Of a stretch of DNA of 64,000 nucleotides, positions 18,099 to 58,075 are shown piece after piece. The number at the start of each line of letters is the position of its first letter. Within the stretch, counting starts at the first letter, position 1. Below the pieces are notes generated by a model. That model was not told where the DNA came from. It saw only the letters and a program-made list of their open reading frames with translations, and made no database searches. The stretch is from an uncultured cyanobacterium (GTDB lineage: Bacteria > Cyanobacteriota > Cyanobacteriia > PCC-6307 > Cyanobiaceae), in contig CAVONQ010000018.1 in NCBI GenBank assembly GCA_963697335.1, positions 384,001 through 448,000 on the forward strand. Reading direction: 5' to 3'. The position numbers and the translations under genes are program-made.

Positions 18099-20243
18099 GT
18101 GCGTTACGAGTGGGTCGAGCAACACGCCGAGGAGGATTGCGGCGCGGCCTGCCTGGCCACAGTGGCCCGCTACCACGGCCGCCGGCTGGCCCTCTCCCGG
18201 GTGCGCGAACTGGTGGGCACGGGGACCCGAGGCACCACCTTGCTGGGCCTGCGGCGGGGAGCCGACGCCGTCGGTTTCCATGCCCGGGCGGTGCGGGCCG
18301 ATGGGGCCCTGCTCGACCGCCTCGAGGCGCTGCCCCTGCCGGCGATCTGTCACTGGCAGGGAAACCACTGGGTGGTGCTGTACGGCCGGAAGGGCCGCAA
18401 GCTGGTGATTGCGGATCCGGCTGTCGGGATCCGCAGGTTGTCACCTGAGGAGTTTCGAGCCGGTTGGGGCAACGGGGTGCTGTTGCTGCTTGAGCCGGAT
18501 CTCAACCGTCTGCTGGAGCAGCCGCAGGAGGAGCGGCTGCCGTTTCTGCGCTTCCTGCGGCTGAGCTGGCCCTACCGGGGTTTGCTGCTGCAGGCCCTTG
18601 GCATCAACGTGGTGATCGGCCTGCTGGCCCTGGCCATGCCGCTGTTGATGCAGCTGCTCACCGATGATGTGCTGGTGCGCCGGGATAGCCAACTGCTCAC
18701 CAGCCTTGGCCTGGCGATGCTGTTTCTGTTTGTCTTTCGCAGCGCCATCAGCCTGATCCAGGGCCACATAGTGGGTCATTTCGCCCAGCGCCTTCAGCTG
18801 GGGATGGTGCTGGAGTACGGCCATCGGCTGCTGCGCTTGCCGATGACCTATTTCGACAGCCATCGCAGTGGCGAGGTGGTGAGCCGGATTGGCGACATCA
18901 GCCGGATTAATGCCCTGATCAGCGATCTGGTGTTGGGCCTGCCCAGTGACTTCTTCATTGCTGCCATCTCGCTGGTGGTGATGCTGATCTACAGCCCTCC
19001 ACTGACGGTCGTGTCCCTGTTGGCGTTTGGAATTTTGATCGCTTCCGGACTGCTATTTCTGCCAGCTCAATACGAAAAAAGCCGCCGCGTGATTGTGGAA
19101 TCCGCGGAGAATCAGGGGTTTCTGGTGGAGATCTTCCGTGGCGCCCAGGTGCTTAAAACCACCGAGGCGTTGCCCCAGGCCTGGGACGAGTACCAGCGCA
19201 ATTTCGGCAGCGTTGCGCACCTGCGTTGGGATGCACTGCAGTTGTCGTTGTTCAGTGGCACCACCACCGGGCTGCTGTCGCGGGTCACCACCCTGGCCCT
19301 CCTCTGGTATGGCAGCAGCTTCGTGATTTCTGGTCAACTCTCCATCGGCCAGTTGCTTGCTTTCAGCGGTATGAGCGGCAATGTGCTCGGTTTTCTGGAA
19401 TCCCTCGTGGACTTCACCGACGACTACCTGACCGCCAACGTGGTGATCAGGCGGCTCTCGGAGGTGCTGGAGGGCAGCCTGGAGGACCCTAAGGCGATCG
19501 ACAAGCCATGGGTGGCCCTGCCGCAGCCGTGCGAGATCCAGTGCCGCAATCTCAGCTTCCACCATGCCGGCCGGCTGGACCTGCTCAGCAACCTTCACCT
19601 CACCATTCCCGCCGCCTGCTGCACCGCCGTGATCGGGGAATCTGGCTGCGGCAAGAGCACCCTGGTGAAGCTGCTGGCCGGCCTCTATCCACCCCAGAGC
19701 GGCTCGATCCACTACGGACCCTACGGCCGTCACGACATCTCCCTGGACTGCCTGCGGCGGCAGGTGGTGCTGGTGCCCCAGGAGGCCCAGTTCTTCAACC
19801 GCACGATCTTCGAGAATTTTCGCTTCGCCTATCCCGACGTCAGCTTCGATCAGGTGGTGGCGGCCTGCGAGCGGGCACTGGCCGACGAATTCATCCGCGA
19901 CCTGCCGGACGGTTACCAGACCGTGCTGGGAGAATTCGGCGCCAACCTCTCGGGTGGTCAGCGCCAGCGCCTGGCGATCGCGCGCGCCCTGGTGTCCTGT
20001 CCGGCCGTGCTGATCCTGGATGAATCCACCGCCGCGTTGGACCCGGTGCTGGAGCGGCGCCTGATGGACAACCTCCTGCAGCATCGCAAGGGTTTGACCA
20101 CGGTGATGATCAGTCACCGCCCGAGCGTCATCCAGCGCTGTGATTGGCTGGTGTACCTGGAGCGAGGCCACGTCGTGTCCCAGGGTCGACCCCAGGACCT
20201 GGGCAACAGTGCACCACTGGCCCCCTACCTGCTGACGGCATGA
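18099..20243 (+). CDS. peptidase-containing ABC transporter (C39 peptidase + TMD + NBD), double-glycine peptide exporter
   Basis: Q...EDCGAACL (catalytic Cys), HWVV (His), IADPA (Asp); TM region; Walker A GESGCGKST, LSGGQRQR, LILDE, SHR. Confidence 0.95.
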   Translation: MRYEWVEQHAEEDCGAACLATVARYHGRRLALSRVRELVGTGTRGTTLLGLRRGADAVGFHARAVRADGALLDRLEALPLPAICHWQGNHWVVLYGRKGRKLVIADPAVGIRRLSPEEFRAGWGNGVLLLLEPDLNRLLEQPQEERLPFLRFLRLSWPYRGLLLQALGINVVIGLLALAMPLLMQLLTDDVLVRRDSQLLTSLGLAMLFLFVFRSAISLIQGHIVGHFAQRLQLGMVLEYGHRLLRLPMTYFDSHRSGEVVSRIGDISRINALISDLVLGLPSDFFIAAISLVVMLIYSPPLTVVSLLAFGILIASGLLFLPAQYEKSRRVIVESAENQGFLVEIFRGAQVLKTTEALPQAWDEYQRNFGSVAHLRWDALQLSLFSGTTTGLLSRVTTLALLWYGSSFVISGQLSIGQLLAFSGMSGNVLGFLESLVDFTDDYLTANVVIRRLSEVLEGSLEDPKAIDKPWVALPQPCEIQCRNLSFHHAGRLDLLSNLHLTIPAACCTAVIGESGCGKSTLVKLLAGLYPPQSGSIHYGPYGRHDISLDCLRRQVVLVPQEAQFFNRTIFENFRFAYPDVSFDQVVAACERALADEFIRDLPDGYQTVLGEFGANLSGGQRQRLAIARALVSCPAVLILDESTAALDPVLERRLMDNLLQHRKGLTTVMISHRPSVIQRCDWLVYLERGHVVSQGRPQDLGNSAPLAPYLLTA

Positions 20244-21385
20244 GCGAGCTTCCCGTCCGGGTGGCTGACGCCACCGAGAGCCAGCAGCTGCGCCCGGCCT
20301 CTGTTCAGGAGTTCCTGCCCTCGGTACGCCCCTGGGTGCGGCTGGCCGGCGTCGTGCTGGTGGGGAGTTTTGTGGCCGGCGTGGCGTTGATGGCGGTGTG
20401 GCCCTACCGAGTGGTGGTCAGAGCAGCAGGGTCTGTGCGGCCCAGTGGCGAGACCAGCCTGGTGCATGCGCCGCGGGATGGGCGGGTGAGGGAGATCCGC
20501 ATCCAGCCCAATCAGGAGGTCGAACGGGGTGAGGTGCTGGCGGTGATGGATCCCGCCGATCTGGAGGGCAGGGAGCTGAAGCTGCGGCAGGGCGGCACAT
20601 CGCTCGATGACCAGCTGGCGGCGCAGCGCAGGGAGAACACGGCTGCACTGCAGGCGGCACGACTGGAGGTCGAGAAGGCCCGGGCCACCCTTGATCTGGC
20701 CCGCTCGGAGTACCAGCGCTACAGCCAGCTCGTCAGCAGCGGTGCCGCCTCCCGGGAGCAGATGGAGGAGAAGCGTGCCAGTCTGAGCGTGGCGTCATCC
20801 AACCTGGCCAAGGCCCAGCGGGATGTGGAGCAGCAGCAGTCCCGGGGCGAGACTGCCCTGGCGAGACTGGGACAGCAACAGGTTGAAAACCAGGCGGAAC
20901 GGGCCCAGCTCGGCCGTGATCTCGGACGCCAGCTGATCAGGGCGCCCGTAGGGGGTGTGATCTTCTCCCTCACCCTCCGCAACCCCCTCCAGGTGGTCAC
21001 GGCCGGCCAGGAGCTGGCGCAGATCGCGCCCGAGGGGGCGCCGTACCTGGCGAAGGTGCAAGTGTCATCAGCGGACATCGCCAATGTGGAGGTGGGCCAG
21101 CGGGCCGATCTGCGCCTGGCGGGCTGTCCCTTCCCCGATTTCGGGACCCTGCGGGCCGAGGTGGTGTCCGTGGCTCCTGATGCGGCTGCGGTTCCGTCTG
21201 CTCCCGGTGGCGCGGGGGCCAGTGGCTATGCGGTGACACTGCGCCCGGAGCAGACCCAGCTGCGCTCGTCGTCCCGAAGCTGTGAGCTGCGGCTGGGCAT
21301 GGACCTCACAGCTGACATCACCACCCGGGTCGAGACCGTGCTCCAGTTCCTGTTGCGCAAGACCCGGCTGCTGGTGGGGCTGTGA
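20240..21385 (+). CDS. HlyD-family periplasmic adaptor of type I secretion
   Basis: ATGA overlap with exporter; one TM, lipoyl half-motifs (VERGEVLA / IRAPVGG), coiled coil, CPFPDFGTL, LRLGM..TADI. Confidence 0.93.
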   Translation: MSELPVRVADATESQQLRPASVQEFLPSVRPWVRLAGVVLVGSFVAGVALMAVWPYRVVVRAAGSVRPSGETSLVHAPRDGRVREIRIQPNQEVERGEVLAVMDPADLEGRELKLRQGGTSLDDQLAAQRRENTAALQAARLEVEKARATLDLARSEYQRYSQLVSSGAASREQMEEKRASLSVASSNLAKAQRDVEQQQSRGETALARLGQQQVENQAERAQLGRDLGRQLIRAPVGGVIFSLTLRNPLQVVTAGQELAQIAPEGAPYLAKVQVSSADIANVEVGQRADLRLAGCPFPDFGTLRAEVVSVAPDAAAVPSAPGGAGASGYAVTLRPEQTQLRSSSRSCELRLGMDLTADITTRVETVLQFLLRKTRLLVGL

Positions 21386-21516
21386 TGCTGTGGCGACCCC
21401 CCTGGGCGGGACGCTTCCTCCTGCTGGGCGTGGGATTCATCGCAGTTCAGGCGTGGTGGGCTCCGCGCTGGGTTCTGCCAGCAGCCAGCACAGCCCCATG
21501 GGGGAGCAACAGCAGG

Positions 21517-21572
21517 GGTAAGAGTTTTCTTGCCGCTTTCCTGCCAATCTCTTACCGCCCATCTTGTAGTTT
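21517..21572 (+). promoter_or_regulatory. putative regulated promoter of precursor 1
   Basis: GTAAGA then TCTTGCC/TCCTGCC/TCTTACC at 21528, 21539, 21550 (11-bp period) and TAGTTT at 21567; same layout as 22090-22149. Confidence 0.65.
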
Positions 21573-21711
21573 ACGATCAGAACAGTCCCTTGGACTGATC
21601 AACCGATGGGCCAAACATGACCCACGTCTTGATCGCCAGAGGTCGGACGTCCGTCTGTTCAGGCCTTTCTGAATACAGAGTCTGATTTAAGTTCATCAAG
21701 AGGAGCAATCC

Positions 21712-21942
21712 ATGAACACAGAATCCATAGCAGACATGAGCCTGCCGGGGCTCAATCTGCTCTCGGGAGCAGAGAGCTTCATCCACGATCTCAACCCTGA
21801 AGATGAGGCCTCGATCGCGGGCGGCAGTGGCAGGCGCAGCCGTCTGCGCAGCCGCCGCAGCCGCCTTCGCAGCCGCCTCCGCAACCGCCGCAGCCGTTTG
21901 CGCAGTCGCCGCAGCCGTCTGCGCAGCCGCCGCAGGCGTTAG
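21712..21942 (+). CDS. putative RiPP precursor 1: 38-aa double-glycine leader + 38-aa Arg/Ser-rich core
   Basis: SD AGGAG; leader ends DLNPEDEASIAGG; core SGRRSRLRSRRSRLRSRLRNRRSRLRSRRSRLRSRRRR; downstream of C39 exporter. Confidence 0.88.
   Translation: MNTESIADMSLPGLNLLSGAESFIHDLNPEDEASIAGGSGRRSRLRSRRSRLRSRLRNRRSRLRSRRSRLRSRRRR
21835..21933 (+). repeat. imperfect tandem repeats (CGCAGCCGY units) encoding RSRL/RSR
   Basis: Repeated cgcagccgtctg / cgcagccgc blocks visible in sequence. Confidence 0.85.
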
Positions 21943-22089
21943 GAGGGTGGGTGGCCAGGTCTCCCAACAGGGGCTGTGCCCCCCGATGTTCACAAGGGGG
22001 CGCGCACCTCTCGAGGGTTGCATGGCTGGGGTGATGAAGTCACCTCGCTTGGCGTGACGGGAGCCCTACCCCATGGCGGTCACGCAGGG

Positions 22090-22149
22090 GAACAGTAAGA
22101 CTACTCTTACCATTCTCCTGCCATTCTCTTACTGTTCACCTGTTACATT
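22090..22149 (+). promoter_or_regulatory. putative regulated promoter of precursor 2
   Basis: GTAAGA then TCTTACC/TCCTGCC/TCTTACT at 22105, 22116, 22127 and TACATT at 22144. Confidence 0.65.
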
Positions 22150-22300
22150 CCTATTAGTCCAGCCAAGAAGGCCGGACTGGTGGACAGGGCCGAAAGCCGC
22201 ACACAGATCACAGATCACAGAGCACTGATGGTCTTGTTGCCTACGGTTCTCTCCATCGCTCAATCAACCCTGGCACTTTGCCGAAACGGAGGAATACCGC

Positions 22301-22528
22301 ATGAACACACAAACCACAGCCGATGTTGCGTTGCTGGGCCTCGACCTGCTGCTCGGGCCCGATAGCCTCATCAGTGAGCTCAGTCCTGAGGATGAGGCCT
22401 CGATCTCGGGTGGCCGCCGTCGCCGCAGCCGCAGCGGCATCAGCCGTCCCAGCCGCAGCCGTCCCAGCCGCCGCAGCCGTCCCAGCCGTCCCAGCCGTAG
22501 CTTCCGGCGCAACCGCAGGCGCCGTTGA
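22301..22528 (+). CDS. putative RiPP precursor 2: 38-aa double-glycine leader + 37-aa Arg/Ser/Pro-rich core
   Basis: SD GGAGG; leader ends ELSPEDEASISGG (23/38 identical to precursor 1 leader); core RRRRSRSGISRPSRSRPSRRSRPSRPSRSFRRNRRRR. Confidence 0.88.
   Translation: MNTQTTADVALLGLDLLLGPDSLISELSPEDEASISGGRRRRSRSGISRPSRSRPSRRSRPSRPSRSFRRNRRRR
22422..22500 (+). repeat. imperfect tandem repeats (AGCCGTCCC / AGCCGC) encoding SRP/SR
   Basis: agccgtccc occurs four times, interspersed with agccgc. Confidence 0.85.
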
Positions 22529-22573
22529 GCAAGTGACTGACCGGGGAACTTCTCCCCCTGTCGAGAGCTTCAG

Positions 22574-22609
22574 ACCCCGGGGCTGCTGGATGCCAGCCTC
22601 GGGGTTTTT
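22574..22609 (+). terminator. intrinsic terminator-like hairpin between precursor 2 and the modifying enzyme
   Basis: ACCCCGGGGCTG...CAGCCTCGGGGT stem (one G-U pair) followed by T-run. Confidence 0.75.
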
Positions 22610-22671
22610 CTATAGCCTTGATCAAGTCCCTTGGGGCTGGAGCTTGTTGTTGCCGTGGTGAGTCTGGGGTC

Positions 22672-25164
22672 ATGGTCGTTCGTTTGAATTCGGAGGGCAT
22701 CCACGAGTATTTGATGCATCAGGGTCTGTGCGATTCAACGGATGTCGTTGAAGACGTTCAACAGTTGATTGGCAAAAATATGAATCTGCTGGTTCAACTC
22801 ACAAAGCCTGATGCTCAACCTTCAAGAGCCCGTCACTTGCTGATCAAGCAGGGACCGATCGGGCGATCGGAGCTGCCCAAACAGGATTTTGAAGAGGAAT
22901 GGAGAATTCATCAGCTGCTGGCTGGCCACGAACAGCTGTTTCCCCTGCAGGCCTTGCTGCCAGAGGGGATCAAGTTTGACGTCGCCAATGCCATTCAGAT
23001 CTTTCGATATCTTGAATCGTATGGCGATCTTGGCGACTTCTATGACGATGCCAAGCGGTTTCCCACCAAGGTCCCTGTGGCCCTCGGCAGTGCCCTAGCC
23101 GCGCTGCATCAGGCAACGTTCAGCCGCCAAGACTATCTTCTCCAATTAGATCCAGAGAGTGCTGATGAGGGATGTGAAAAGCCTGACTTTCGCGATGAGC
23201 TTGAGAATCTCACTCCAGAGATCTTCCGGCAGATCTCGATTGATGGTTTGCAATTCTACAGATTGTACAACCGATCAGAAGAGCTCTCGAAGGCCATAGC
23301 TCAGCTGGAGCATGACTATGAACCATGCTGCTTGATCCACAATGACCTGAAGTTTAGAAATATCCTGCTTCATGATGATTGGTCCCGCTGGCAGCCCCCG
23401 TCGTCCCTTCCTGCTTCTGTCCATGAGTTGTGTCTGCCCGATGCTCAGGGCCTTGTGCGTCTGATTGATTGGGAGCAATGGGCATGGGGTGACCCGGCCT
23501 TTGATGTGGGCGCCCTTGTGGCTGAGTATCTGCGGCTGTGGTTAAAGAGTCTGGTGCTCAGCCGCGATGTTGACCTGGTGGTGGCGTTGCAGCTTGCTGC
23601 CGTGCCCCTGGACACGCTGCAGCCCTCCCTTGCGGCCTTCATGCAGGCCTATCTGGCCCAGTTCCCCGGCATCCTGGCGGCGTTTCCCGCCTTCCCAGCA
23701 CGGGTGCTGCGCTTCGCCGGCCTCGGTTTGATTGGGGCGATTCAGGACAGGCTGCACTATCGGGAGTCCTGTGGAAATCTGGAAATTGCGATGCTGCAAG
23801 TGGCCAGATCATTGCTCTGCAATCCGGAAGCCGCCATGGTCACGGTGTTCGGCTGCAGGGATGTTCAACCTGATGGCTTTCAACCTTCTGGCCTTGAACC
23901 TGACCTTGCACCTGGCCTTGAACGTGACGTTGGAGACAGCGGCAGCCCTTCTCCCGCCCAATCCCCACGCGACAAGTGTGAACTGCAGGGCCAGGTGCCT
24001 CTGCCCCTTTGGGTGCAGCGTGGCCCTAGTGAGGAGGCTCTCGCTGACCTGATCACCAATGTTCGAATTGAGCCTCCACTGATTTTTCATCCGGCCTACC
24101 AGGTCCTTGATCTGGTCCATCCAGGGGAACCTCAGAGCACGGGGATGGATCAACGCCAGCAATGCTTGAGCAAGTTGCCTGACGACCTTCGCCAGGCCTA
24201 TCTGGTGCGTCAGGTGAGAAACTATCTGCATGATATCTACTTCAGTGGCGAGCGGGAAAGGAAGGGGCCTGGGATTGCGGCGACCAAGGAGTTCAAGAAC
24301 GATTCTGTTTCTGGACTCAACGTGGATTACTTTCATCGGATCGAGCTGGCCAATGGCGGCACAGGCTTTCCTGACCCCGACTGGATGATCCTTCGCTGGG
24401 ATGGCGATCGTGCTCAGGTGGAAAAAGATGGTCTGCGACTCTGGGTTAATCCCTGCGTTGACCTTGTGAAGGATGAGGCCTTGAAGCTGAGCTCCATCCG
24501 GCGTGAGGGTCCACCATCAGTAACTGTGGGTGCAGCAGTGGGTGCAGCAATGGCTGTGGGAACAACGGTGGTGTTACGGTTGCCCAATGCAGTTTTGACT
24601 GAAGAGAGCTACAGCGCGATCGGCAATGGAGGAGAGCCTGCTCCTGATCAGCCTTGCATCATCATCTACTTCAATATCAGTGCTGAAGGTGCTCTTCTGC
24701 TGATGGATGTTCTGACCAAGGCCCTGAATCTGCAGGGATGCCCCTTCGCTTTGACCATCCTGACTGATCCTGCCTGCTATGGCCGATTCAACAGTGTCAC
24801 CTTGATGATCGAGGCTACTCACTATCAGGACGTACGCACCATTCTCTGTGAGCTTCAGGCCAGGCTTCAGCCCCATCTGAGCCATCCGATTCCCCTGTTC
24901 ACCTGGCCTCTGGCCCCGGGCATCGGTCTGGCCGAATGCCCGCAGGACGAGGATGACTTTGGTCTGTCTCGATGCCAGATCCTGGCCGAAGCCCTGATCC
25001 TGGCTGATGCCAGTCCCGAGTCCCGGCGGCAAGCCATGCGAGCAAAGTTTTCCGAGCGCAAGCTGAACTGGCAACATCCCCACCTCAATCCTGAATCAGA
25101 CTCCCACTACCCACCCCTGCCGCCACGGGACCGTAGCCAGGCGGCGAATGTCCATCTCAACTAG
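22672..25164 (+). CDS. fused APH/choline-kinase-family phosphotransferase + HopA1-like domain (class V lanthipeptide LanK/LanY-like)
   Basis: N-half: KNMNLLV, LLIKQ, HNDLKFRNILL, IDWE, GDPAFDVG; C-half: YFNI..EGA, PLFT.PLAPGIGLAE.P...FGLSRCQILAEAL resembling HopA1-family proteins; likely ATG 22672. Confidence 0.8.
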   Translation: MVVRLNSEGIHEYLMHQGLCDSTDVVEDVQQLIGKNMNLLVQLTKPDAQPSRARHLLIKQGPIGRSELPKQDFEEEWRIHQLLAGHEQLFPLQALLPEGIKFDVANAIQIFRYLESYGDLGDFYDDAKRFPTKVPVALGSALAALHQATFSRQDYLLQLDPESADEGCEKPDFRDELENLTPEIFRQISIDGLQFYRLYNRSEELSKAIAQLEHDYEPCCLIHNDLKFRNILLHDDWSRWQPPSSLPASVHELCLPDAQGLVRLIDWEQWAWGDPAFDVGALVAEYLRLWLKSLVLSRDVDLVVALQLAAVPLDTLQPSLAAFMQAYLAQFPGILAAFPAFPARVLRFAGLGLIGAIQDRLHYRESCGNLEIAMLQVARSLLCNPEAAMVTVFGCRDVQPDGFQPSGLEPDLAPGLERDVGDSGSPSPAQSPRDKCELQGQVPLPLWVQRGPSEEALADLITNVRIEPPLIFHPAYQVLDLVHPGEPQSTGMDQRQQCLSKLPDDLRQAYLVRQVRNYLHDIYFSGERERKGPGIAATKEFKNDSVSGLNVDYFHRIELANGGTGFPDPDWMILRWDGDRAQVEKDGLRLWVNPCVDLVKDEALKLSSIRREGPPSVTVGAAVGAAMAVGTTVVLRLPNAVLTEESYSAIGNGGEPAPDQPCIIIYFNISAEGALLLMDVLTKALNLQGCPFALTILTDPACYGRFNSVTLMIEATHYQDVRTILCELQARLQPHLSHPIPLFTWPLAPGIGLAECPQDEDDFGLSRCQILAEALILADASPESRRQAMRAKFSERKLNWQHPHLNPESDSHYPPLPPRDRSQAANVHLN

Positions 25165-25181
25165 CCAGCAATCAGGATGCG

Positions 25182-25886
25182 ATGAGAATTCTAGTGGTTG
25201 AAGATGATGCTGGGATTTCCAGATTCATCCAGCAAGGACTGAGCGAGGCTGGCTACGCTATCGACGTGGCTTCTGATGGTCCCGAAGGATTGCGATTTGC
25301 CGAGGCCGCTGACTACGATGCCGTAGTGCTCGACGTGTTGCTGCCTGGTCAGGATGGCTTGAGCGTCCTGAAGAGCCTGCGCCAGCAGGGCCTTCAGACC
25401 CCGGTGCTGCTGTTGACGGCCCTGGATACCGTCGAAGACCGAGTGCTGGGTTTGGATGCAGGGGCTGATGACTACCTGATCAAACCATTTGACTTCACAG
25501 AACTACTGGCTCGCCTGCGCGCATTGCTCCGGCGCCCGCCCTTGCATGCCGATGTCGTGCTCAGAGTGGGTCGTCTGCAGATGGACACAGTCCACAGGAT
25601 TGTCAAGCGGGATGACCATCCGATTGAGCTCAGCCCACGGGAGTATTCCCTGCTGGAATATCTGATGCGCAATGCGGATCACGTTCTCAGCCGCACCCAG
25701 ATCGCCCAGCATGTCTGGAGTTTTGACTTTTATGGAGACTTCAAGGTGATTGATGTCTATATTGGCTATCTGCGTCGAAAAATCGATCAGCAGGGATCGC
25801 CGTCGTTGATCAGAACCGTGCGTGGTGTGGGTTATTCGATGAACGCTCATGTGGAGGCTTCCCCTGCTGAAGGAGTCGGCCCCTGA
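25182..25886 (+). CDS. OmpR/PhoB-family response regulator
   Basis: MRILVVEDD, LDVLLPG (phospho-Asp), GADDYLIKPF, winged helix LSPREYSLLEYL...IRTVRGVGY. Confidence 0.95.
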   Translation: MRILVVEDDAGISRFIQQGLSEAGYAIDVASDGPEGLRFAEAADYDAVVLDVLLPGQDGLSVLKSLRQQGLQTPVLLLTALDTVEDRVLGLDAGADDYLIKPFDFTELLARLRALLRRPPLHADVVLRVGRLQMDTVHRIVKRDDHPIELSPREYSLLEYLMRNADHVLSRTQIAQHVWSFDFYGDFKVIDVYIGYLRRKIDQQGSPSLIRTVRGVGYSMNAHVEASPAEGVGP

Positions 25887-25911
25887 TCCCATTACCTTCC
25901 ATGTTTAGATC

Positions 25912-27375
25912 ATGGTGATGCAGCGAAAGTCCTGGCAAAGTCTGCGCTTGAGGCTGGTGGCCTGGTACAGCTTGTTGGCCGGCGTTTCGATGCTTGTTTC
26001 CGATGGCTATACCTATCTGGAGTTTCGACAGACCCTGCTGGCCCAGATTGACCGTTCTCTGGAGGTCAGCGCAATTCAGGCCCGCAAGAATCTTGACGAT
26101 GAAGTTGATGCGCTGGTGTTTGACCCCCGCCGGGACGCGCCGCTGCTGGCCTCCCTGCTTAATGATGCGGGCGTAGAAATCTATTTGATCAGTTTGGATG
26201 GTTCGATCAAGGAGCAGTTCGGAGACTCGCTCTCATCCCTCAGCACATCCAACCTCGAACCTGGATACCATACCGTCGCCAGGTCCAGTGGGCGTTGGCG
26301 AACCTATACCAAGGAACTTCTTGCCAGTGGGGGTGATCCCTCGGGATGGCTGAAGGTGGCTCAGTCGCTCAAGCCCATGGATGCCACCTTGGCCAGGGTG
26401 TTTCAGCGCAATCTTCTCAAGCTACCCATTCTGCTTGGCATGATTGCCCTTGGCGGACTGTTTCTGGCCAACCGTGCCCTGCAACCCATCGCCCGAATCA
26501 CAAGAACGATTCAGCATATTCGGGTGAGTGGAGATCTCGCCCAGCGCATTCACTACAAGAGCAGTGCTGCTGATGAACTGGCGCGCCTGGCTACTCTCAT
26601 TGATGGGATGCTGGATTCCATTCAGTCCACCTTTGACCACGAAAGACGATTCACTGCCGATGCATCCCATGAGCTTCGCACCCCGCTGACAGCCATGAAG
26701 GGTCGTCTGCAGGTGACCCTGAGCCAACTCCGCACGGTCGACACTTACGAAGAGACCCTCAGGGCGATCGGGCTGGAAGTGGATCGTTTGATTCGTCTCA
26801 GCAATGATCTGCTGCTGCTCTCCCGTCTGGAGCAGAACCACATCAATCCTCCCATGGAAAAGGTGGATCTTGGCCATTTACTCGCCGAGTCGGCTGCCCA
26901 GATTCAGCCGCTGGCTGAACTTCGCCATCTCCATCTGACGACGACCCTTGAGCCCGATCTTTTTATCCAGGGATACCCAGACCATCTGATTCGTTTGTTT
27001 CTGAACCTGCTCGATAATGCCGTCAAAAATACTCCCGATGAGGGCTCTGTGGGTGTGCAGGCCCTGACCTTCTCAAGCATGGTGCAGGTCACCCTTCGTG
27101 ACAGCGGCGTCGGCATCCCCTCTGAGCACCTGCCCCATCTGTTTGAACGCTTTTATCGCGTCGAGAAATCCCGTTCACGCGCCTTGGGTGGCACAGGTCT
27201 GGGCCTGGCCATTGCCCAGGAAATCGTCCATCGCCACCACGGCACGATCTCCGTGGCGAGTCAGCCTGGCCTGGGGACGACCTTCACGATCAGATTTCCA
27301 TGTCATCGCGATGCCGCAGCCGATTCCCATGCCCCTCAGCCCAGGCACCGACTGGGATCAGCAGAGTCCAGCTAG
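25912..27375 (+). CDS. membrane sensor histidine kinase (2 TM, HAMP, HisKA, HATPase)
   Basis: FTADASHELRTPL, NLLDNAVK, DSGVGIP, FERFYR, GTGLGLAI. Confidence 0.95.
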   Translation: MVMQRKSWQSLRLRLVAWYSLLAGVSMLVSDGYTYLEFRQTLLAQIDRSLEVSAIQARKNLDDEVDALVFDPRRDAPLLASLLNDAGVEIYLISLDGSIKEQFGDSLSSLSTSNLEPGYHTVARSSGRWRTYTKELLASGGDPSGWLKVAQSLKPMDATLARVFQRNLLKLPILLGMIALGGLFLANRALQPIARITRTIQHIRVSGDLAQRIHYKSSAADELARLATLIDGMLDSIQSTFDHERRFTADASHELRTPLTAMKGRLQVTLSQLRTVDTYEETLRAIGLEVDRLIRLSNDLLLLSRLEQNHINPPMEKVDLGHLLAESAAQIQPLAELRHLHLTTTLEPDLFIQGYPDHLIRLFLNLLDNAVKNTPDEGSVGVQALTFSSMVQVTLRDSGVGIPSEHLPHLFERFYRVEKSRSRALGGTGLGLAIAQEIVHRHHGTISVASQPGLGTTFTIRFPCHRDAAADSHAPQPRHRLGSAESS

Positions 27376-28250
27376 CCGCTCCTCCCATGGGCCTGTTCAT
27401 TGCTGCCCTGGCACCGGGGAGGGCCTTGGCGCTGTTGAACGAGCAGCACAGCCAGCAGCCCCAGCCAGCCGATCGCACCCCCCAGTGGGTTGGTGCCTGA
27501 GCCCACACCGCCGGGCCCGGCCCACCAGCCGGGCGCCTCGGCCGACACCGCCAGCAGCCCGCTCTGCACCAGGAACCAGCCGCCCACGAGGCCACCGTGC
27601 AGCGCCGCCGGCCCCCACAGCAGGCCGTTCCCCCCTTGCCTCTCCCGGGCCAGCACCACCCCCAGCAGGATCAGGCCCCCCAGCAGGCTGAATGCCAGGA
27701 GCCCATTCTCCTGATACCAGGGGTGCACCAAGCCAAACACCAGGGCCTGCAGCAGCAGCGCCAGGGGATCCTTCAGCCCCAGCCGCAGTTCACCCCAGAG
27801 CCAGCCGCGAAATAGCAGCTCCTCCGCCAGGCCCACGCCGCAGGCCAGCAGCAGGGCATTCACGAGCAGGCCCCCATCCAACCTGCCCAGCCAGCGGGCC
27901 TGCCCGCTGAGCAGCAGCGCCACGCTCACCAGTGCCAGCAAGGCCAGGGCTTTGGCCAACCCCCTGGCGGCGCTGGCCAGGGCTCGGCGGGGGCTGCAGA
28001 TGAGGCCAAGGGTCCTCCAGGGTCGCGACACCCCCCAGGCGGTGCGCAGACGCCACGGCAGCGTGGCCAGCAGAAGGGCAAAGGAGAGCGACACGCCGGC
28101 CAGGTCCACCTGGTCAGGCCGCCAGCCAGGTGCCAGCCAGCCCAGGGGCCGGGAGAGCAGGAAGCCCACGCCATAGAGCACGGGCACATAGAGCACCGTG
28201 CCCCACCAGCGGGGCATGGGTGCAGGCCCAGCCGGGCCTGGCGCCGCCAT
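27372..28250 (-). CDS. CPBP (CAAX/Abi) family intramembrane protease
   Basis: EELLFRG, FGLVH, LHGG motifs; multiple TM segments. Confidence 0.88.
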   Translation of the reverse strand: MAAPGPAGPAPMPRWWGTVLYVPVLYGVGFLLSRPLGWLAPGWRPDQVDLAGVSLSFALLLATLPWRLRTAWGVSRPWRTLGLICSPRRALASAARGLAKALALLALVSVALLLSGQARWLGRLDGGLLVNALLLACGVGLAEELLFRGWLWGELRLGLKDPLALLLQALVFGLVHPWYQENGLLAFSLLGGLILLGVVLARERQGGNGLLWGPAALHGGLVGGWFLVQSGLLAVSAEAPGWWAGPGGVGSGTNPLGGAIGWLGLLAVLLVQQRQGPPRCQGSNEQAHGRSG

Positions 28251-39440: not shown

Positions 39441-40640
39441 TCAGGCGATGATCTTCGACACCACGCCGGCACCGATGGTGCGGCCGCCCTCACGAATGGC
39501 GAAGCGCATGCCCTGCTCGATGGCCACAGGGCAGATCAGCTCACCGGTCATTTTGATGCGGTCGCCTGGCATCACCATTTCCACGTTGGAGCCGTCGTCC
39601 GCGGTGAAGGCGGTGATCTGGCCGGTCACGTCCGTCGTACGGATGTAGAACTGCGGCCGGTAGCCGGCGAAGAAGGGGGTGTGGCGACCGCCCTCTTCCT
39701 TCTTGAGCACATACACCTCACCTTCGAACTTGGTGTGGGGGGTGATCGAACCGGGCTTGATCAGCACCATGCCGCGCTCGATGTCCTCCTTCTGGATGCC
39801 GCGCAGCAGCAGACCCACGTTGTCACCTGCCATGCCCTCGTCGAGGAGCTTGCGGAACATCTCCACACCGGTCACGGTGCTCTTGCGGGTGTCTCTGATT
39901 CCCACGATCTCGATTTCCTCGCCCACCTTCACCTTGCCGCGCTCGATCCGGCCCGTGGCCACGGTGCCGCGACCGGTGATCGAGAACACGTCCTCGACCG
40001 CCATCAGGAATGGCTTGTCAATCTCGCGCTCCGGCTCGGGGATGGAGGCATCCACGGCTTCCATCAGTTCATTGATCTTGCCTTCCCACTCGGCATCGCC
40101 TTCGAGCGCCTTGAGGCCGGACACCTGGATCACGGGGATGTCGTCGCCGGGGAAGTCGTAGCTGCTCAGCAGCTCGCGCACTTCCAGTTCCACCAGCTCG
40201 AGAATCTCCTCGTCATCCACCATGTCGCATTTGTTGAGTGCAACCACGAGGGCCGGCACGCCCACCTGCTTGGCCAGCAGGATGTGCTCCTTGGTCTGGG
40301 CCATCGGGCCGTCGGTGGCAGCCACCACCAGGATGGCACCGTCCATCTGGGCGGCACCGGTGATCATGTTCTTCACGTAGTCCGCGTGACCGGGGCAGTC
40401 GACGTGGGCGTAGTGACGGTTGTCGGTTTCGTACTCGACGTGGGCGGTGTTGATCGTGATGCCGCGCTCGCGCTCTTCAGGGGCGCCGTCGATCTGGTCG
40501 TAGGCCTGGGCCTTCGCGAAACCTTTTTTCGCCAGCACATTGGTGATGGCGGCCGTGAGGGTGGTTTTGCCGTGGTCAACGTGGCCGATGGTGCCGATGT
40601 TGACGTGGGGTTTGTTCCTTTCGAACTTTTCGCGAGCCAT
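39441..40640 (-). CDS. tuf: elongation factor Tu
   Basis: [27 protein letters not shown]. Confidence 0.99.
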
Positions 40641-40680
40641 GGGAGGAAAGAATCGGGGGGGTTGTTGGGTAGGGTGAAGA

Positions 40681-42756
40681 TCAGGACTTGCCCTGATTCT
40701 TGGAGATGATGGCCTCGGCCACATTGCGAGGAACTTCCTCGTAATGGCTGAACTCCATCGAGAAGATACCCCGACCCTGGGTCATGGATCGGAGCTGGGT
40801 GGCGTAGCCGAACATCTCGGCTAGGGGCACCTTGGACTGGACTTTGGATCGTCCATCATCGATGGACTGTCCTTCGACCTGACCACGGCGAGAGGAAAGG
40901 TCGCCGATCACGGATCCGAGGAAATCCTCAGGGATCTCGACCTCGACCTTCATCATTGGTTCAAGCAGCACAGGATTGCACTTCTTGACGCCGTCTTTGA
41001 AGGCCATGGAGCCGGCGATCTTGAACGCCATCTCAGAAGAGTCGACGTCGTGATAAGAGCCATCCACCATGGTGACCCTCACGTCGATCATGGGGTAGCC
41101 CGCGATCACACCGGATTCGCAAGTTTCCTTCATGCCGGCTTCGGCCGGGCCGATGTACTCCTTGGGCACGATGCCACCAACAATCTTGTTGACGAACTCA
41201 AAGCCTGTGCCCGGTTCGCCGGGCTCCATCTCGATCACGACATGGCCGTACTGGCCCTTGCCGCCCGTTTGACGGGCGAACTTGCCTTCACCCTTGGCGC
41301 TGGCTCGGATCGTTTCCCGGTAGGACACCTGGGGAGCACCGATGTTGGCCTCCACCTTGAACTCGCGCAGCATCCTGTCCACCAGGATCTCCAGGTGGAG
41401 TTCTCCCATGCCGGCGATCACGGTCTGGTTGGTTTCCGGATCGGTTGACACCCTGAAGGTGGGATCCTCTTCCGAGAGCGATTGGAGGGCCTTGGACAGT
41501 TTGTCCATGTCGCCCTTGGTCTTGGGCTCCACGGCCACCGAAATCACGGGCTCGGGGATGTATAGCGACTCGAGGATGATCGGATCGCTGTCCACGCAGA
41601 GGGTGTCGCCGGTGGTGGTGTCCTTGAGGCCGAGCACGGCACCGAGGTCGCCAGCGCGAAGTTCATCCACCTCTTCACGATCATCGGCTTTGAGGATGAT
41701 CAGCCGCGAGATACGCTCCTTTTGGTCCTTGGTGGAGTTCAGGACATAGCTGCCCTTCTGCAGAACGCCGGAGTAAATCCGCACGAAGGTGAGCTTGCCG
41801 AAGGGATCGGCCATCACCTTGAAGGCCAGGGCACTGAAGGGTGCGCTGTCTTCGGCGGGGCGCAGGGCCTCACTGCCATCGGGCAGCAGGCCCTGGATCG
41901 GAGGCACGTCGATCGGGGCGGGGAGATAATCGACCACCGCATCCAGCAGCAGCTGCACGCCTTTGTTCTTGAAGGCAGAGCCACACAGCATGGGCACCAG
42001 GCCGTGCTTGAGCACGCCGGTGCGGATGCCCTTGCGCAGCTGCTCATCGCTGAGCTCGCCGGTTTCGAGAAACACCTCCACCAGATCTTCATCGGTTTCG
42101 GCGACCGACTCCATCAGCTTGTTGCGCCAGTGGGCGGCTTCCTCAGCCATGGAGGCGGGGATGTCGGTCTCCTCGATGTCCTTGCCGAGCTCATCTTTGT
42201 AGATGAACGCCCGGTTCTTGACCAGATCCACGATGCCGCTCAGTTCACCCTCGGCGCCGATCGGCAATTGGATCGGTGCTGCGCTGGCCTTGAGGCGATC
42301 CTTGATCTGCTCGTAGACCTTGAGGAAGTCGGCCCCGGTGCGGTCCATCTTGTTGACGAACACCATGCGGGGGACTTTGTAGCGATCCGCTTGGCGCCAC
42401 ACGGTTTCCGACTGGGGCTGGACGCCGCCCACGGCACAGAAAACGGCGATCACACCGTCGAGCACCCGCATCGAACGCTCCACCTCAATGGTGAAGTCGA
42501 CGTGACCGGGGGTATCGATGATGTTGATGCGGTGGTCTTTCCAACTGGTGGAAATGGCCGCCGCCGTGATCGTGATGCCCCGCTCACGCTCCTGGGCCAT
42601 CCAGTCGGTGACGGCGGCGCCGTCGTGCACCTCGCCGATCTTGTGGACCACCCCGGAGTAAAACAGGATCCGCTCGGTGGTGGTTGTCTTGCCCGCGTCG
42701 ATATGGGCGGCAATGCCGATATTTCTGACGCGTTCCAGTGGAAAGGCGCGAGCCAC
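40681..42756 (-). CDS. fusA: elongation factor G
   Basis: [23 protein letters not shown]. Confidence 0.99.
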
Positions 42757-55411: not shown

Positions 55412-55559
55412 AGCACCTGGAAAGTGTTCGGATCTCGTGTCTCTAACTGCCCTAGAGACCCCAGTGCTGGCCTGGGAAAGCGCCGGATTGAACCTTTGTA
55501 ACTGGGCGCCCAGGGGGCATGGATTTGGCCCTTATAGTGCCGCCAGCGGTCCCCTACCT

Positions 55560-55752
55560 GGGGCCCAAAGCCCCAGCCATGGCAACGGATCTCGCGGCTT
55601 CGCGAGCCTGCTGCCGGCTGGAGCCCATGACCGGTCCGGCTCCGGCAGGTCCAGTCATGGGGCCCATCTGTCATCGATCTCCGCCCCGTGCGGATGCGAT
55701 GGCTTCCAGGGGTGGATCACCACCTCGACCCCGTCCCTCGAGGAACGTCTCG
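55560..55752 (+). promoter_or_regulatory. structured psaA 5' leader (candidate psaA RNA motif)
   Basis: Hairpins CTCGCG-GCTT-CGCGAG and CATGAC...GTCATG upstream of psaA; a psaA leader motif is known in picocyanobacteria; boundaries approximate. Confidence 0.4.
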
Positions 55753-58056
55753 ATGACCATCAGCCCACCAGAGCGTGGGGAAAAGGCCAAGGCCATGGTC
55801 GACCGGAACCCCGTTCCGGTCTCGTTCGAGCTTTTTGAAAAGCCCGGACACTTCGACCGAACCCTGGCCAAAGGTCCCAAAACCACCACCTGGGTTTGGA
55901 ACCTCCACGCCAACGCTCACGATTTCGACAGCCACACGAGCGACCTCGAAGAGGTCTCTCGCAAAATCTTCTCGGCTCACTTCGGCCATCTGGCCGTCAT
56001 CTTCATCTGGCTGAGCGGTGCCTTCTTCCACGGCGCCCGCTTCTCCAACTACACCGGCTGGCTGGCTGACCCTCTTCACGTCAAGCCTTCAGCCCAGGTG
56101 GTCTGGCCCATCTTTGGCCAGGAAATTCTCAATGGCGATGTGGGTGCCGGCTTCCACGGCATTCAGATCACCTCCGGACTCTTCCATGTGTGGAGGGCCT
56201 GGGGCTTCACCAATGAGTTCCAATTGCTTTGCACGGCAATCGGCGCTCTGGTGATGGCCGGCCTGATGCTCAACGCCGGCGTCTTCCATTACCACAAAGC
56301 TGCCCCCAAGCTCGAGTGGTTCCAGAACGTTGAGTCGATGCTCAACCACCATCTGGCTGGACTGCTGGGCCTCGGCTCCCTGTCCTGGACAGGACACCTG
56401 CTGCATGTGTCCCTGCCCACCACGGCCCTGATGGATGCGATTGATGCCGGCCAACCGCTGGCCATCAACGGCAAGACCATCGCCTCCTATGCCGACATCC
56501 CGCTGCCCCACGAGTTCATCAACCAGGATGTGCTCTCGCAGCTCTATCCAGGATTCGGTGCCGGTATCTCCGCCTTCTTCACCGGTAATTGGGCGGCCTA
56601 CAGCGATTTCCTCACCTTTAAGGGTGGTTTGAATCCTGTGACAGGCAGCCTCTGGATGACAGACATTGCGCATCACCACCTGGCGATCGCCGTGCTGTTC
56701 ATTGTGGCGGGCCACATGTACCGCACCAACTGGGGTATTGGCCACAGCATCAAAGAAATCCTCGAAGGTCAGAAGGGCGACCCCCTGCTGTTCCCGGCCC
56801 CCAAGGGCCACGATGGTCTGTTTGAGTTCATGACTACCAGCTGGCATGCCCAGCTCGGCGTGAACCTGGCCCTGCTCGGCTCGCTGACCATCATCGTGGC
56901 GCATCACATGTATGCGATGCCGCCCTATCCCTACATCGGGATTGATTACCCCACTCAGGTTTCACTCTTCACCCACCACATGTGGATTGGAGGTTTCCTG
57001 ATCGTTGGCGCCGGTGCCCACGCTGCCATTGCCATGGTGCGTGACTATGACCCGGCCAAACACATCGATAACGTGTTGGATCGCGTCCTCAAGGCCCGCG
57101 ATGCCCTGATCAGTCACCTGAACTGGGTGTGCATCTTCCTGGGCTTTCACAGCTTCGGGTTCTACGTCCACAACGACACCATGCGTGCCCTGGGCCGGCC
57201 CCAGGACATGTTCAGCGACTCCGCCATTGCCCTGAAGCCCATCTTCGCGCAGTGGATCCAGGGTCTGCACGCCGCTGCAGCCGGCAGCACCGCTCCCAAC
57301 GCCCTCGCCGGTGTCAGTGAAGTGTTCAATGGCGCCGTGGTGGCGGTGGGTGGCAAGGTTGCCGCTGCGCCGATCCCCCTGGGCACGGCGGACTTCATGG
57401 TCCACCACATCCACGCCTTCACGATCCACGTCACCGTGCTGATCCTGCTGAAGGGTGTGCTCTACAGCCGCAGCTCCCGCCTCGTTCCCGACAAGGCGAA
57501 CCTCGGTTTCCGCTTCCCCTGCGACGGCCCCGGCCGTGGCGGTACTTGCCAGGTGTCGGCTTGGGACCACGTGTTCCTCGGCCTGTTCTGGATGTACAAC
57601 TCCCTGTCGATCGTGATCTTCCACTTCTCCTGGAAGATGCAGAGCGACGTGTGGGGCACCGTCAATGCTGACGGCACCGTCCAGCACATCACCAACGGCA
57701 ATTTTGCCCAGAGTGCCATCACCATCAATGGTTGGCTGCGTGACTTCCTGTGGGCCCAGGCCGCTCAGGTGATCAACAGCTATGGCTCGAGCTCCAGTGC
57801 CTATGGCCTGATGTTCCTGGGTGCCCACTTCATCTGGGCCTTCAGCCTGATGTTCCTGTTCAGTGGCCGCGGCTACTGGCAAGAGCTGATTGAGTCCATC
57901 GTCTGGGCTCACAACAAGCTGAAGGTGGCGCCGGCCATTCAGCCCCGCGCCCTTTCCATCACCCAGGGCCGTGCCGTGGGTGTCGCCCATTACCTGCTGG
58001 GCGGCATCGCGACCACTTGGTCCTTCTTCCTGGCCCGCATGATTGCGGTCGGCTGA
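55753..58056 (+). CDS. psaA: photosystem I P700 apoprotein A1
   Basis: [26 protein letters not shown]. Confidence 0.99.
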
Positions 58057-58075
58057 CCTTTCCTGACCTTTCCCA

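Follow-up and report, generated by a model that had tools for sequence, protein, structure and literature searches.

A seven-gene island in the genome of an uncultured picocyanobacterium of the family Cyanobiaceae appears, from its sequence, to serve the production, probable phosphorylation and export of two arginine/serine peptides that resemble protamines. The island occupies positions 18099-27375 of a 64,000-nucleotide stretch, referred to here as the window (GenBank assembly GCA_963697335.1, contig CAVONQ010000018.1, positions 384,001 to 448,000). Inspection of open reading frames (ORFs) places all seven genes on the + strand with every frame open, in the order C39-peptidase ABC exporter, HlyD, two precursors with double-glycine (GG) leaders, a fusion of an APH-type kinase with a HopA1-like domain, an OmpR-type regulator and a sensor kinase (Table 1). 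The initial annotation of this DNA had described the same co-oriented genes, and both the ORFs and the Pfam and NCBIfam domains agree with it. This is an acquired island of the type that makes peptides synthesised on ribosomes and modified after translation (RiPPs), probably under the control of its own two-component system. The favoured explanation, which has about an even chance of being right, is that it exports densely phosphorylated peptides in which the phosphoserine is retained.

Precursors and fusion enzyme

The core of precursor 1 consists of 22 Arg, 9 Ser, 5 Leu, 1 Gly and 1 Asn. That of precursor 2 consists of 19 Arg, 10 Ser, 4 Pro and one each of Phe, Gly, Ile and Asn. The Cys count is zero in both, which bears out the earlier claim of Cys-free cores. 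A Shine-Dalgarno sequence stands 8 nt before each ATG (GGAG for precursor 1, GGAGG for precursor 2). A hidden Markov model (HMM) of the leader, built from the two window leaders and then iterated over related loci (consensus MATIKISDLRPAGSELFSDSESFLNELSDEELSSISGG), matches precursor 1 with an E value of 1.7e-12 and precursor 2 with one of 8.8e-09. Across the window and 80 related loci it picks out 196 GG-leader ORFs, and almost every one runs in the direction of the enzyme gene. Relative to the orthologues in genome G012, the ratio of nonsynonymous to synonymous substitution rates (dN/dS) is 0.17 for precursor 1 and 0.12 for precursor 2 (0.10 and 0.14 for the cores), figures that come from one genome pair and an ambiguous alignment of the core repeats. 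A 12-nt indel between precursor 1 and its G012 orthologue is in frame, and the periods of the DNA repeats in the cores are all multiples of three (12, 21 and 33 nt in precursor 1). A search of 5.8 billion proteins found 26 precursor homologues, all unnamed or 'hypothetical', with R/S-rich cores in all 25 that were fetched; further such cores occur in G012, G015, G019 (two), G039 and L092. Given the Shine-Dalgarno sites, the low dN/dS and the Arg/Lys- and Ser-rich cores of related loci, both precursors are, to judge from sequence, real genes in the frame read here, and purifying selection acts on them.

The enzyme that would modify these peptides is a fusion. In the numbering of its 848-residue ORF (22618-25164) a kinase domain spans residues ~19-415, a low-confidence stretch 428-458 and a LanY/HopA1-like domain ~460-830, with Pfam scores of 28.5 bits for APH and 130.8 bits for HopA1 (PF17914). 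The start is most likely M19 (position 22672) and not 22618, since M19 is invariant in an alignment of 15 sequences, the 99%-identical protein P0001 has 830 residues and G012 has a stop inside the 18-codon extension. The G012 enzyme was considered as a pseudogene, with two stops called, and this was rejected because both stops fall outside the real coding region. One clue to what the enzyme is comes from the Protein Data Bank (PDB), where a profile of the family matched only LxmKY, the lexapeptide dehydratase (E 1.5e-10 for the lyase chain and 6e-05 for the kinase chain). Another is that the best Foldseek matches of an AlphaFold2 (AF2) model (pLDDT 83, pTM 0.83) are LxmK (TM 0.82) and LxmY (TM 0.74). 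With LxmKY as the sole PDB profile match and LxmK and LxmY as the best structural matches, the enzyme is, on this modelling, a natural kinase-lyase (K-Y) fusion of the LxmK-LxmY type (class V dehydratase). A LanK/LanY-type pair fused in one protein was also what the initial annotation had proposed. Relative to G012, dN/dS is 0.15 for the kinase half, 0.47 for the linker and 0.26 for the lyase half.

How would such an enzyme recognise its substrate? A model of the complex between the enzyme and precursor 1 scores 0.73, a mark reached by 116 of 157 solved complexes and by 2 of 215 mismatched pairs; the best of three controls scores 0.00. Contact agreement in the modelling runs is at least 45%. 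The pLDDT of the partner is 45-47, so its own fold is uncertain. Modelled contacts join leader residues 11-30 to enzyme residues 216-220, 308-335 and 386-409, which belong to the C-lobe of the kinase, and several of the contact positions on the enzyme are invariant in the family. The LxmA leader is reported at the corresponding site of LxmK, according to the available part of a review (PMC12141560), so the docking pass may partly reflect likeness to LxmA-LxmK. Binding of the leader to the kinase C-lobe is supported as a prediction.

The window is one of many loci. Among GTDB species genomes, relatives of the enzyme are encoded in at least 543 stretches, and 80 related loci were compared with the window. 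Cationic Ser-rich cores occur in 17 of the 80 (16 by the rule that R+K is at least 0.30; L039, at 21% and KS-rich, was added by eye). Ser+Thr make up 14-41% of these cores, Ser or Thr is always there, and some use Lys where the window has Arg. A rapid maximum-likelihood analysis of the kinase domain (81 rows, SH-aLRT support only) has a branch with an SH-aLRT of 99 that separates the 17 cationic loci and the window from 62 others. The nineteenth row on the cationic side is L009, whose precursor region is cut off by the end of its contig. A search of 1.84 billion cluster representatives gave 133 matches at E <= 1e-30, both fused (~800 residues) and split, and a metagenome scan with the enzyme gave one locus, L092. 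Five cationic loci from other orders were compared, and in two of these the kinase and the HopA1 protein are separate genes. No shared tailoring enzyme is conserved in the flanks of these five, which hold unrelated housekeeping genes. Since the five share no tailoring enzyme, the minimal module would be precursor(s), K/Y, a peptidase-containing ABC exporter (PCAT) and HlyD, often with a two-component system.

Phosphoserine or dehydroalanine

Linear, cationic peptides with modified serines were the product proposed in the initial annotation, and they remain the best reading of Cys-free cores in a cluster that holds no ring-forming enzymes. The absence of the latter, also claimed there, is borne out, as Pfam and NCBIfam scans find no cyclase, decarboxylase, YcaO, methyltransferase or reductase domain among the seven genes. 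Whether the serines end as phosphoserine or dehydroalanine had been left open. Here the balance tips to phosphoserine, through two replaced residues in the lyase half, T713 and M730, and the conserved residues of the kinase half.

The APH-fold kinase motifs are present in the window as HNDLKFRN and IDWE (HxDxxxxN and a metal-binding Asp). D243, N248 and D284 are found in 47 of 47 close relatives and K77 in 46. For the lyase the available part of the work on CaoY is informative (PMC9486802). There, a K219A mutant gives phosphorylated peptide only, R187A nearly abolishes elimination, R229Q is inefficient and Y236 matters; K219 and Y236 match the base pair of SpvC. LxmY carries the Lys, Arg and Tyr in 'AKVLSDPQDFPRRDAVVLY' at a spacing of 0, +10 and +17. 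Single-sequence and profile alignments agree in setting this segment against 'LTILTDPACYGRFNSVTLM' of the window, which puts Thr713 in place of the Lys (CaoY K219) and Met730 in place of the Tyr (Y236), with Arg723 kept (R229). The AF2 model has T713 on one strand (710-715) and M730 on the strand next to it (727-732).

The close relatives can be read in the same way. The lyase Tyr is absent in all 47 and the Lys is replaced in 13, which requires at least 7-8 separate changes on the tree; in the window's own five-member subclade the Lys position holds T, T, T, S and A. R723, K603 and Y665 are invariant. On the non-cationic side the K-R-D-Y motif is intact in 59 of the 59 primary copies covered. 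On the cationic side (the 17 loci and L009) it is intact in 4 of 18, with the Tyr missing in 14 and the Lys also missing in 2 of those. Across the cationic clade, as aligned here, the kinase site has been conserved and the motif of the lyase has eroded. It is this replacement of the lyase Lys and Tyr beside constant kinase residues that favours phosphoserine over dehydroalanine. It also suggests that what is essential is the kinase activity, with the HopA1 half of the window copy serving as a scaffold that no longer eliminates.

What if the phosphates simply stay where the kinase puts them? In the proposed mechanism the response regulator would bind a triple direct-repeat box upstream of each precursor and switch on transcription. 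The leader would dock on the kinase C-lobe of the fusion enzyme, as modelled, and the kinase half would phosphorylate the 9-10 core serines with ATP. The LanY-like half is probably a scaffold or substrate cradle and not a lyase. Because this half is without the catalytic Lys and Tyr, the phosphates would probably be retained and not eliminated. At -2 per phosphoserine, full phosphorylation would by simple arithmetic take the net charge of the cores from +22 and +19 to about +4 and -1, a reduction that could spare the producer and ease export. The C39 domain would cut after the GG, and the exporter with HlyD would secrete the core.

SRPK-type kinases phosphorylate eukaryotic RS domains and protamines, and multi-site Ser phosphorylation neutralises Arg/Lys-Ser repeats; diatom silaffins belong to the same background. 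Perhaps the island is a bacterial counterpart of protamine/SR-protein charge switching, in which a leader-guided kinase makes a phospho-polycation that is near-neutral, harmless within the producer and exportable, and a pseudo-enzyme lyase serves as the scaffold. This is possible but on the doubtful side. In composition the KS-type cores of relatives are similar to silaffin repeats; there is no homology here, and the parallel is one of function only.

The strongest rival explanation is canonical LanK/LanY chemistry, with phosphorylation and elimination both carried out by the fusion. The products would be linear Arg-rich peptides with up to 9-10 dehydroalanines, exported as electrophilic polycations. 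In its favour are the homology of the two domains to the dehydratases LxmKY and CaoKY, the invariance of R723, K603 and Y665, the purifying selection on the lyase half and the Lys kept in 15 of 17 cationic loci. Nevertheless, this chemistry is unlikely. The window copy has Thr for the base Lys and Met for the partner Tyr, and CaoY loses elimination when its Lys is changed (K219A). The Lys position varies freely in the window's subclade while the kinase residues are constant. Moreover, the genes supply neither a Cys or other nucleophile partner nor an enzyme to act on the dehydroalanine.

Several observations weigh against retained phosphoserine. The argument that the lyase is dead draws on its alignment with LxmY, where identity is ~20%, and on mutants of another enzyme, CaoY. 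The whole cyanobacterial family is without Arg at the column aligned to CaoY R187, so the active site may be built differently, and another base such as the invariant K603 could substitute for the lost Lys. Most cationic-clade enzymes (the 15 of 17 above) keep the Lys, so relatives may still dehydrate. The conservation of the lyase half (dN/dS 0.26) also fits retained catalysis, and the dN/dS ratios all derive from the single pair of window and G012. The enzyme reaches 85.7 bits with the NCBIfam LxmK equivalog model, short of its cut-off of 315. Lastly, an acidic sensor domain for a polycation was looked for in the island's sensor kinase and rejected. A stretch of ~130 residues precedes the sole clear hydrophobic segment (~167-190, by hydropathy), and it is not acidic (17 D/E vs 16 K/R), so nothing suggests that this kinase senses a polycation.

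The second rival explanation dispenses with modification. The peptides would be exported essentially unmodified, as bacteriocin-like or matrix components, and the enzyme would be vestigial, a leader-binding chaperone or active on another substrate. PCAT systems export unmodified GG-leader peptides in other bacteria, and in Synechococcus elongatus biofilm formation needs small secreted GG-motif proteins, as stated in the available text of one study (PMC4997328). The eroded lyase motif fits as well. However, of 47 relatives 46-47 keep the kinase catalytic residues, and dN/dS is low (0.15) for the kinase half. The enzyme gene always travels with cationic precursors, every cationic core offers Ser (Ser+Thr 14-41%) and the complex model places the leader on the enzyme. 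This makes export of unmodified peptides less likely still than dehydration. A decaying, silent remnant without current function would match the patchy distribution among relatives (5 of 41 genomes, the window's own counted), an ABC gene in two pieces, perhaps frameshifted, in G019 and the lost lyase residues, but seven open frames, dN/dS of 0.12-0.26 across precursors and enzyme and conserved regulatory boxes and Shine-Dalgarno sites make it very improbable.

Genomic setting, export and regulation

The enzyme is present in 5 of the 41 genomes searched, counting the window's own (G000), and in 3 of 24 other same-genus genomes. Three same-genus genomes without it (G002, G013 and G016) have CofG, an slr0320-type radical SAM (rSAM) gene, a CPBP protease, ClpS and DapL in an unbroken row, whereas the window and G012 have the seven genes between the rSAM gene and the CPBP gene. 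Because the flanks adjoin in relatives without the enzyme, the seven genes form an inserted, acquired island, and the earlier statement that they interrupt core genome holds. GC content is 0.56-0.58 at 22-27 kb of the window vs ~0.68 around. Low GC was considered as proof of transfer and found weak, since tuf/fus and psaAB in the same window dip too. The genes for EF-Tu (tuf), EF-G (fus) and psaA/psaB, at 39441-42756 and 55519-60298, lie in GC dips of 0.59-0.63; genome GC is otherwise 0.65-0.73, and these highly expressed core genes are below average. Presence and absence among relatives is the better evidence of transfer because core genes show such dips as well.

Genome G019 has two such islands, one either side of the CofG and rSAM genes. 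These are L096 and L097 (G019:C2, about 1596000-1629900), and their RS cores differ, with one island rich in SRP repeats and the other having a core that ends KYSRKYSKSYC. In one of the two the ABC gene was matched as two pieces (1-530 and 532-714), possibly through a frameshift.

Two candidates for an immunity gene were set aside. CPBP-family proteases are often tied to bacteriocin immunity. The one at the end of the island (Table 1) also adjoins the rSAM gene in island-less relatives, and it was rejected for this reason. The other candidate is a small ORF with a hydrophobic stretch that overlaps the HlyD stop (21382-21672). It has a stop in the same frame in G012, and its apparently conserved peptide is a conserved DNA repeat box read in frame.

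The exporter carries an N-terminal C39 peptidase domain with its motifs, a type I exporter transmembrane domain and an ABC ATPase, as PCATs do. Its Pfam scores are 121.8 bits for Peptidase_C39 (PF03412), 126.6 for ABC_membrane and 103.9 for ABC_tran, and it aligns over its full length with PCAT1 (4ry2; E 1e-109, residues 2-699). The two share DCGAAC, and HWVVLY of the window is aligned with HFVVIY of PCAT1; DCGAAC and HWVVLY presumably hold the catalytic Cys and His of the C39 domain. On the cargo side both precursor leaders end in GG, where the C39 domain is predicted to cleave. The HlyD gene probably starts at 20240, a start that overlaps the last codons of the ABC gene. Its product reaches 128 bits with TIGR01843, under that model's cut-off, and is 88% identical in G012 and 58-75% in G019. 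The PCAT of the cationic clade is 83-87% identical to the window's in picocyanobacteria and 47-51% in other orders, and outside picocyanobacteria it mostly stands directly after the enzyme gene. On the non-cationic side the PCAT is 31-35% identical to the window's in most loci where one was found. A dedicated PCAT and HlyD goes with the cationic clade.

The repeat boxes upstream of the precursors point to a regulator of their own. The pattern TCTTRCC-N3-TTCCTNCC-N4-TCTTRC has two matches in the 2.58-Mb genome, both in the island, and its reversed control has none. The same box stands upstream of precursors in G012 (two copies), L002, L092, L007 and L010; L001 and G019a showed no such box, and G019b showed only a partial look-alike at the edge of its stretch. 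The island's response regulator scores 264 bits with TIGR01387, below the cut-off of 279. Copies 74-91% identical follow the enzyme gene in L002, L007, L010, L092, G012 and G019, and the box-bearing loci are those with such a copy. The sensor kinase is 59-86% identical in the same loci. Direct repeats are the typical architecture of OmpR/PhoB-family sites. The boxes are candidate binding sites of the island's OmpR-type regulator on the strength of this architecture. Between the precursors and the enzyme gene lies a hairpin in a 90-nt stretch of -41.8 kcal/mol (z = -3.17; 1 of 200 shuffles folds as well), which would yield more precursor than enzyme transcript. A simple promoter/terminator scan gave no more sites than in shuffles and did not list this hairpin.

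Table 1. Genes and sequence elements of the island and its downstream neighbour, in window positions
Feature	Position	Strand	Description
PCAT (C39 peptidase, transmembrane and ATPase domains)	18099..20243	+	Pfam; PCAT1 alignment
HlyD-family periplasmic adaptor	20240..21385	+	ORF open from 20144; HlyD_3 79.2 bits
Triple direct-repeat box 1	21528..21555	+	TCTTGCC / TTCCTGCC / TCTTAC, 11-bp period; 157 nt upstream of precursor 1 start
Precursor 1	21712..21942	+	76 aa: 38-aa GG leader + 38-aa core SGRRSRLRSRRSRLRSRLRNRRSRLRSRRSRLRSRRRR
Triple direct-repeat box 2	22105..22132	+	169 nt upstream of precursor 2 start; 1 mismatch to pattern
Precursor 2	22301..22528	+	75 aa: 38-aa GG leader + 37-aa core RRRRSRSGISRPSRSRPSRRSRPSRPSRSFRRNRRRR
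Terminator/attenuator-like hairpin and U-run	22572..22610	+	between precursors and enzyme gene
Fusion enzyme	22672..25164	+	LanK-like kinase + LanY/HopA1-like domain; Pfam, NCBIfam, AF2, Foldseek
OmpR/CopR-type response regulator	25182..25886	+	Response_reg, Trans_reg_C (Pfam)
Membrane sensor histidine kinase	25912..27375	+	HAMP, HisKA, HATPase_c (Pfam)
CPBP/Rce1-like intramembrane protease	27372-28250	-	directly after island

Described relatives and implications

The initial annotation called the system undescribed. This does not hold, as the family of cyanobacterial HopA1/phosphotransferase clusters with GG leaders is already in print in Eyles et al. 2021 (PMC8153245), with its 'Family 1A', and 'type-B' LanA candidates from cyanobacteria appear in Liang et al. 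2022 (PMC9486802), both known here from part of their text. Eyles et al. listed 1,340 HopA1 proteins, 96% of them adjoining a phosphotransferase. Their Family 1A comprises 570 GG-leader peptides from 183 cyanobacterial HopA1/phosphotransferase clusters, with variable cores that have no conserved Ser, Thr or Cys and with products described as unknown; the available text makes no mention of Arg/Ser-rich cores (PMC8153245). One RS-rich peptide does appear in the supplementary table, beside a HopA1 protein of Cyanobium PCC 7001, with a Pfam match to 'Arginine/Serine-Rich protein 1'. It is undiscussed in the parts available and, by that table entry, falls in network 118 and not in 1A (networks at 40% identity). 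Liang et al. noted cyanobacterial type-B candidates and, in the available text, collected only Cys-containing ones (PMC9486802). The available part of a survey of RiPPs in marine Synechococcus mentions neither HopA1 nor phosphotransferase.

Family 1A and the type-B LanAs are like the window in phylum and in enzyme pair, in having a conserved double-glycine leader and variable cores, and in that a cluster often has several precursors. Its host is cyanobacterial, it has the GG leader, HopA1 and phosphotransferase, and its leaders match the HMM built from the loci. A difference from Family 1A as described is that the cationic loci make up a separate enzyme clade, in which the PCAT is distinct and the lyase motif eroded. 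No characterised product or Arg/Ser subclass was found in the literature searched, which left most subscription journals outside, and within that scope the earlier statement that no RiPP of this architecture has been characterised stands. The cationic Arg/Lys-Ser clade, its dedicated exporter, the eroded lyase motif and the repeat box appear to be unreported in print.

The closest characterised enzymes are LxmK/LxmY and CaoK/CaoY (PDB 9DK1; PMC9486802 and PMC12141560, each available in part), which likewise pair an APH-fold kinase with a HopA1-fold lyase. The Arg equivalent to CaoY R229 is kept (R723), and the leader is predicted on the kinase C-lobe as for LxmA. Unlike these, the window enzyme is a single chain with the kinase ahead of the lyase domain (K-Y order), and T713 and M730 stand at the positions of the catalytic Lys and Tyr. 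Its cluster also differs from theirs, with no core Cys, decarboxylase, cyclase or reductase, with PCAT export and in a cyanobacterial host. The features of class V lanthipeptides (lanthidins) and thioamitides are absent, since the cores have no Cys and the seven genes include no flavin decarboxylase, cyclase, YcaO or reductase.

There is precedent for a phosphate kept in a mature RiPP, in the available accounts of salivaricin 10, a pThr lantibiotic (PMC10235938), and of phosphorylated cyanobactins (PMC12639078). As described there, phosphorylation is not multi-site on a cationic repeat, unlike the window with up to 9-10 sites on a Cys-free repeat. The enzymes also differ from the window's, and in the cyanobactin case the kinase domain is embedded in another pathway protein. 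For PCAT1-type exporters, including the cyanobacterial GG-motif systems (PMC4997328; HetC, PMC10986499; both available in part), the likeness lies in C39 motifs, domains and GG leaders. The window system has a HlyD partner, as expected for a cell with two membranes. What sets it apart from PCAT1-type systems is a cargo that is an extreme polycation (net +19 to +22 unmodified) and is linked to a kinase.

The comparison of loci gave some further observations. L002, L007 and L055 are labelled as metagenome-assembled genomes of Mesorhizobium, Bradyrhizobium or Rhizobium, yet they group with cyanobacterial loci on the tree, L002 and L007 with those of picocyanobacteria, and the L007 precursor is identical to that of G015, a genome of the window's genus. 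These bins seem to carry the wrong organism labels. Seven Nostocales-type loci have a second HopA1-like paralogue ~2-3 kb downstream of the first: L013 (~13420), L019 (~13559), L030 (~4709), L038 (~13381), L040 (~14168), L044 (~13729) and L051 (~13891). Its motif is E-L-N/D-K vs K-R-D-Y in the primary copy, with the lyase Lys and Arg gone, and six of the seven loci have a precursor ending ...LLLCN, ...LLLCQ, ...ITTCN or ...LLVCY. In the Nostoc loci L025, L041, L043, L047, L057, L064, L066, L068 and L072, 3-6 precursors lie downstream of a stand-alone kinase match. Their cores are Thr-alternating repeats (TVTVTVTWTWTWTW, LLGITLTITITITITFTL), which offer densely placed Ser/Thr to an enzyme whose K-R-D-Y motif is intact; RPFPT repeats occur in other loci.

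To our knowledge the only role described for the LanK/LanY pair is that of a dehydratase feeding the formation of rings. In a whole clade of cyanobacterial clusters it is found here with protamine-like Arg/Lys-Ser cores free of Cys and with a dedicated exporter, and with nothing more. Dense phosphorylation, if true, would be new RiPP chemistry and a prokaryotic parallel to the phosphorylation of RS domains and protamines, as well as a natural example of a catalytic domain turned scaffold. If the charge-switch idea were also right, dense, retained phosphoserine would be the signature modification of a RiPP class. In that case the phosphates might stay on outside the cell, and the resulting phospho-peptide would be zwitterionic and bind to minerals, metals or surfaces. 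Alternatively, phosphatases might release the active polycation for killing, aggregation or binding of DNA or polyphosphate. The island may also matter for the interactions of picocyanobacteria in fresh and brackish water with competitors, surfaces or minerals.

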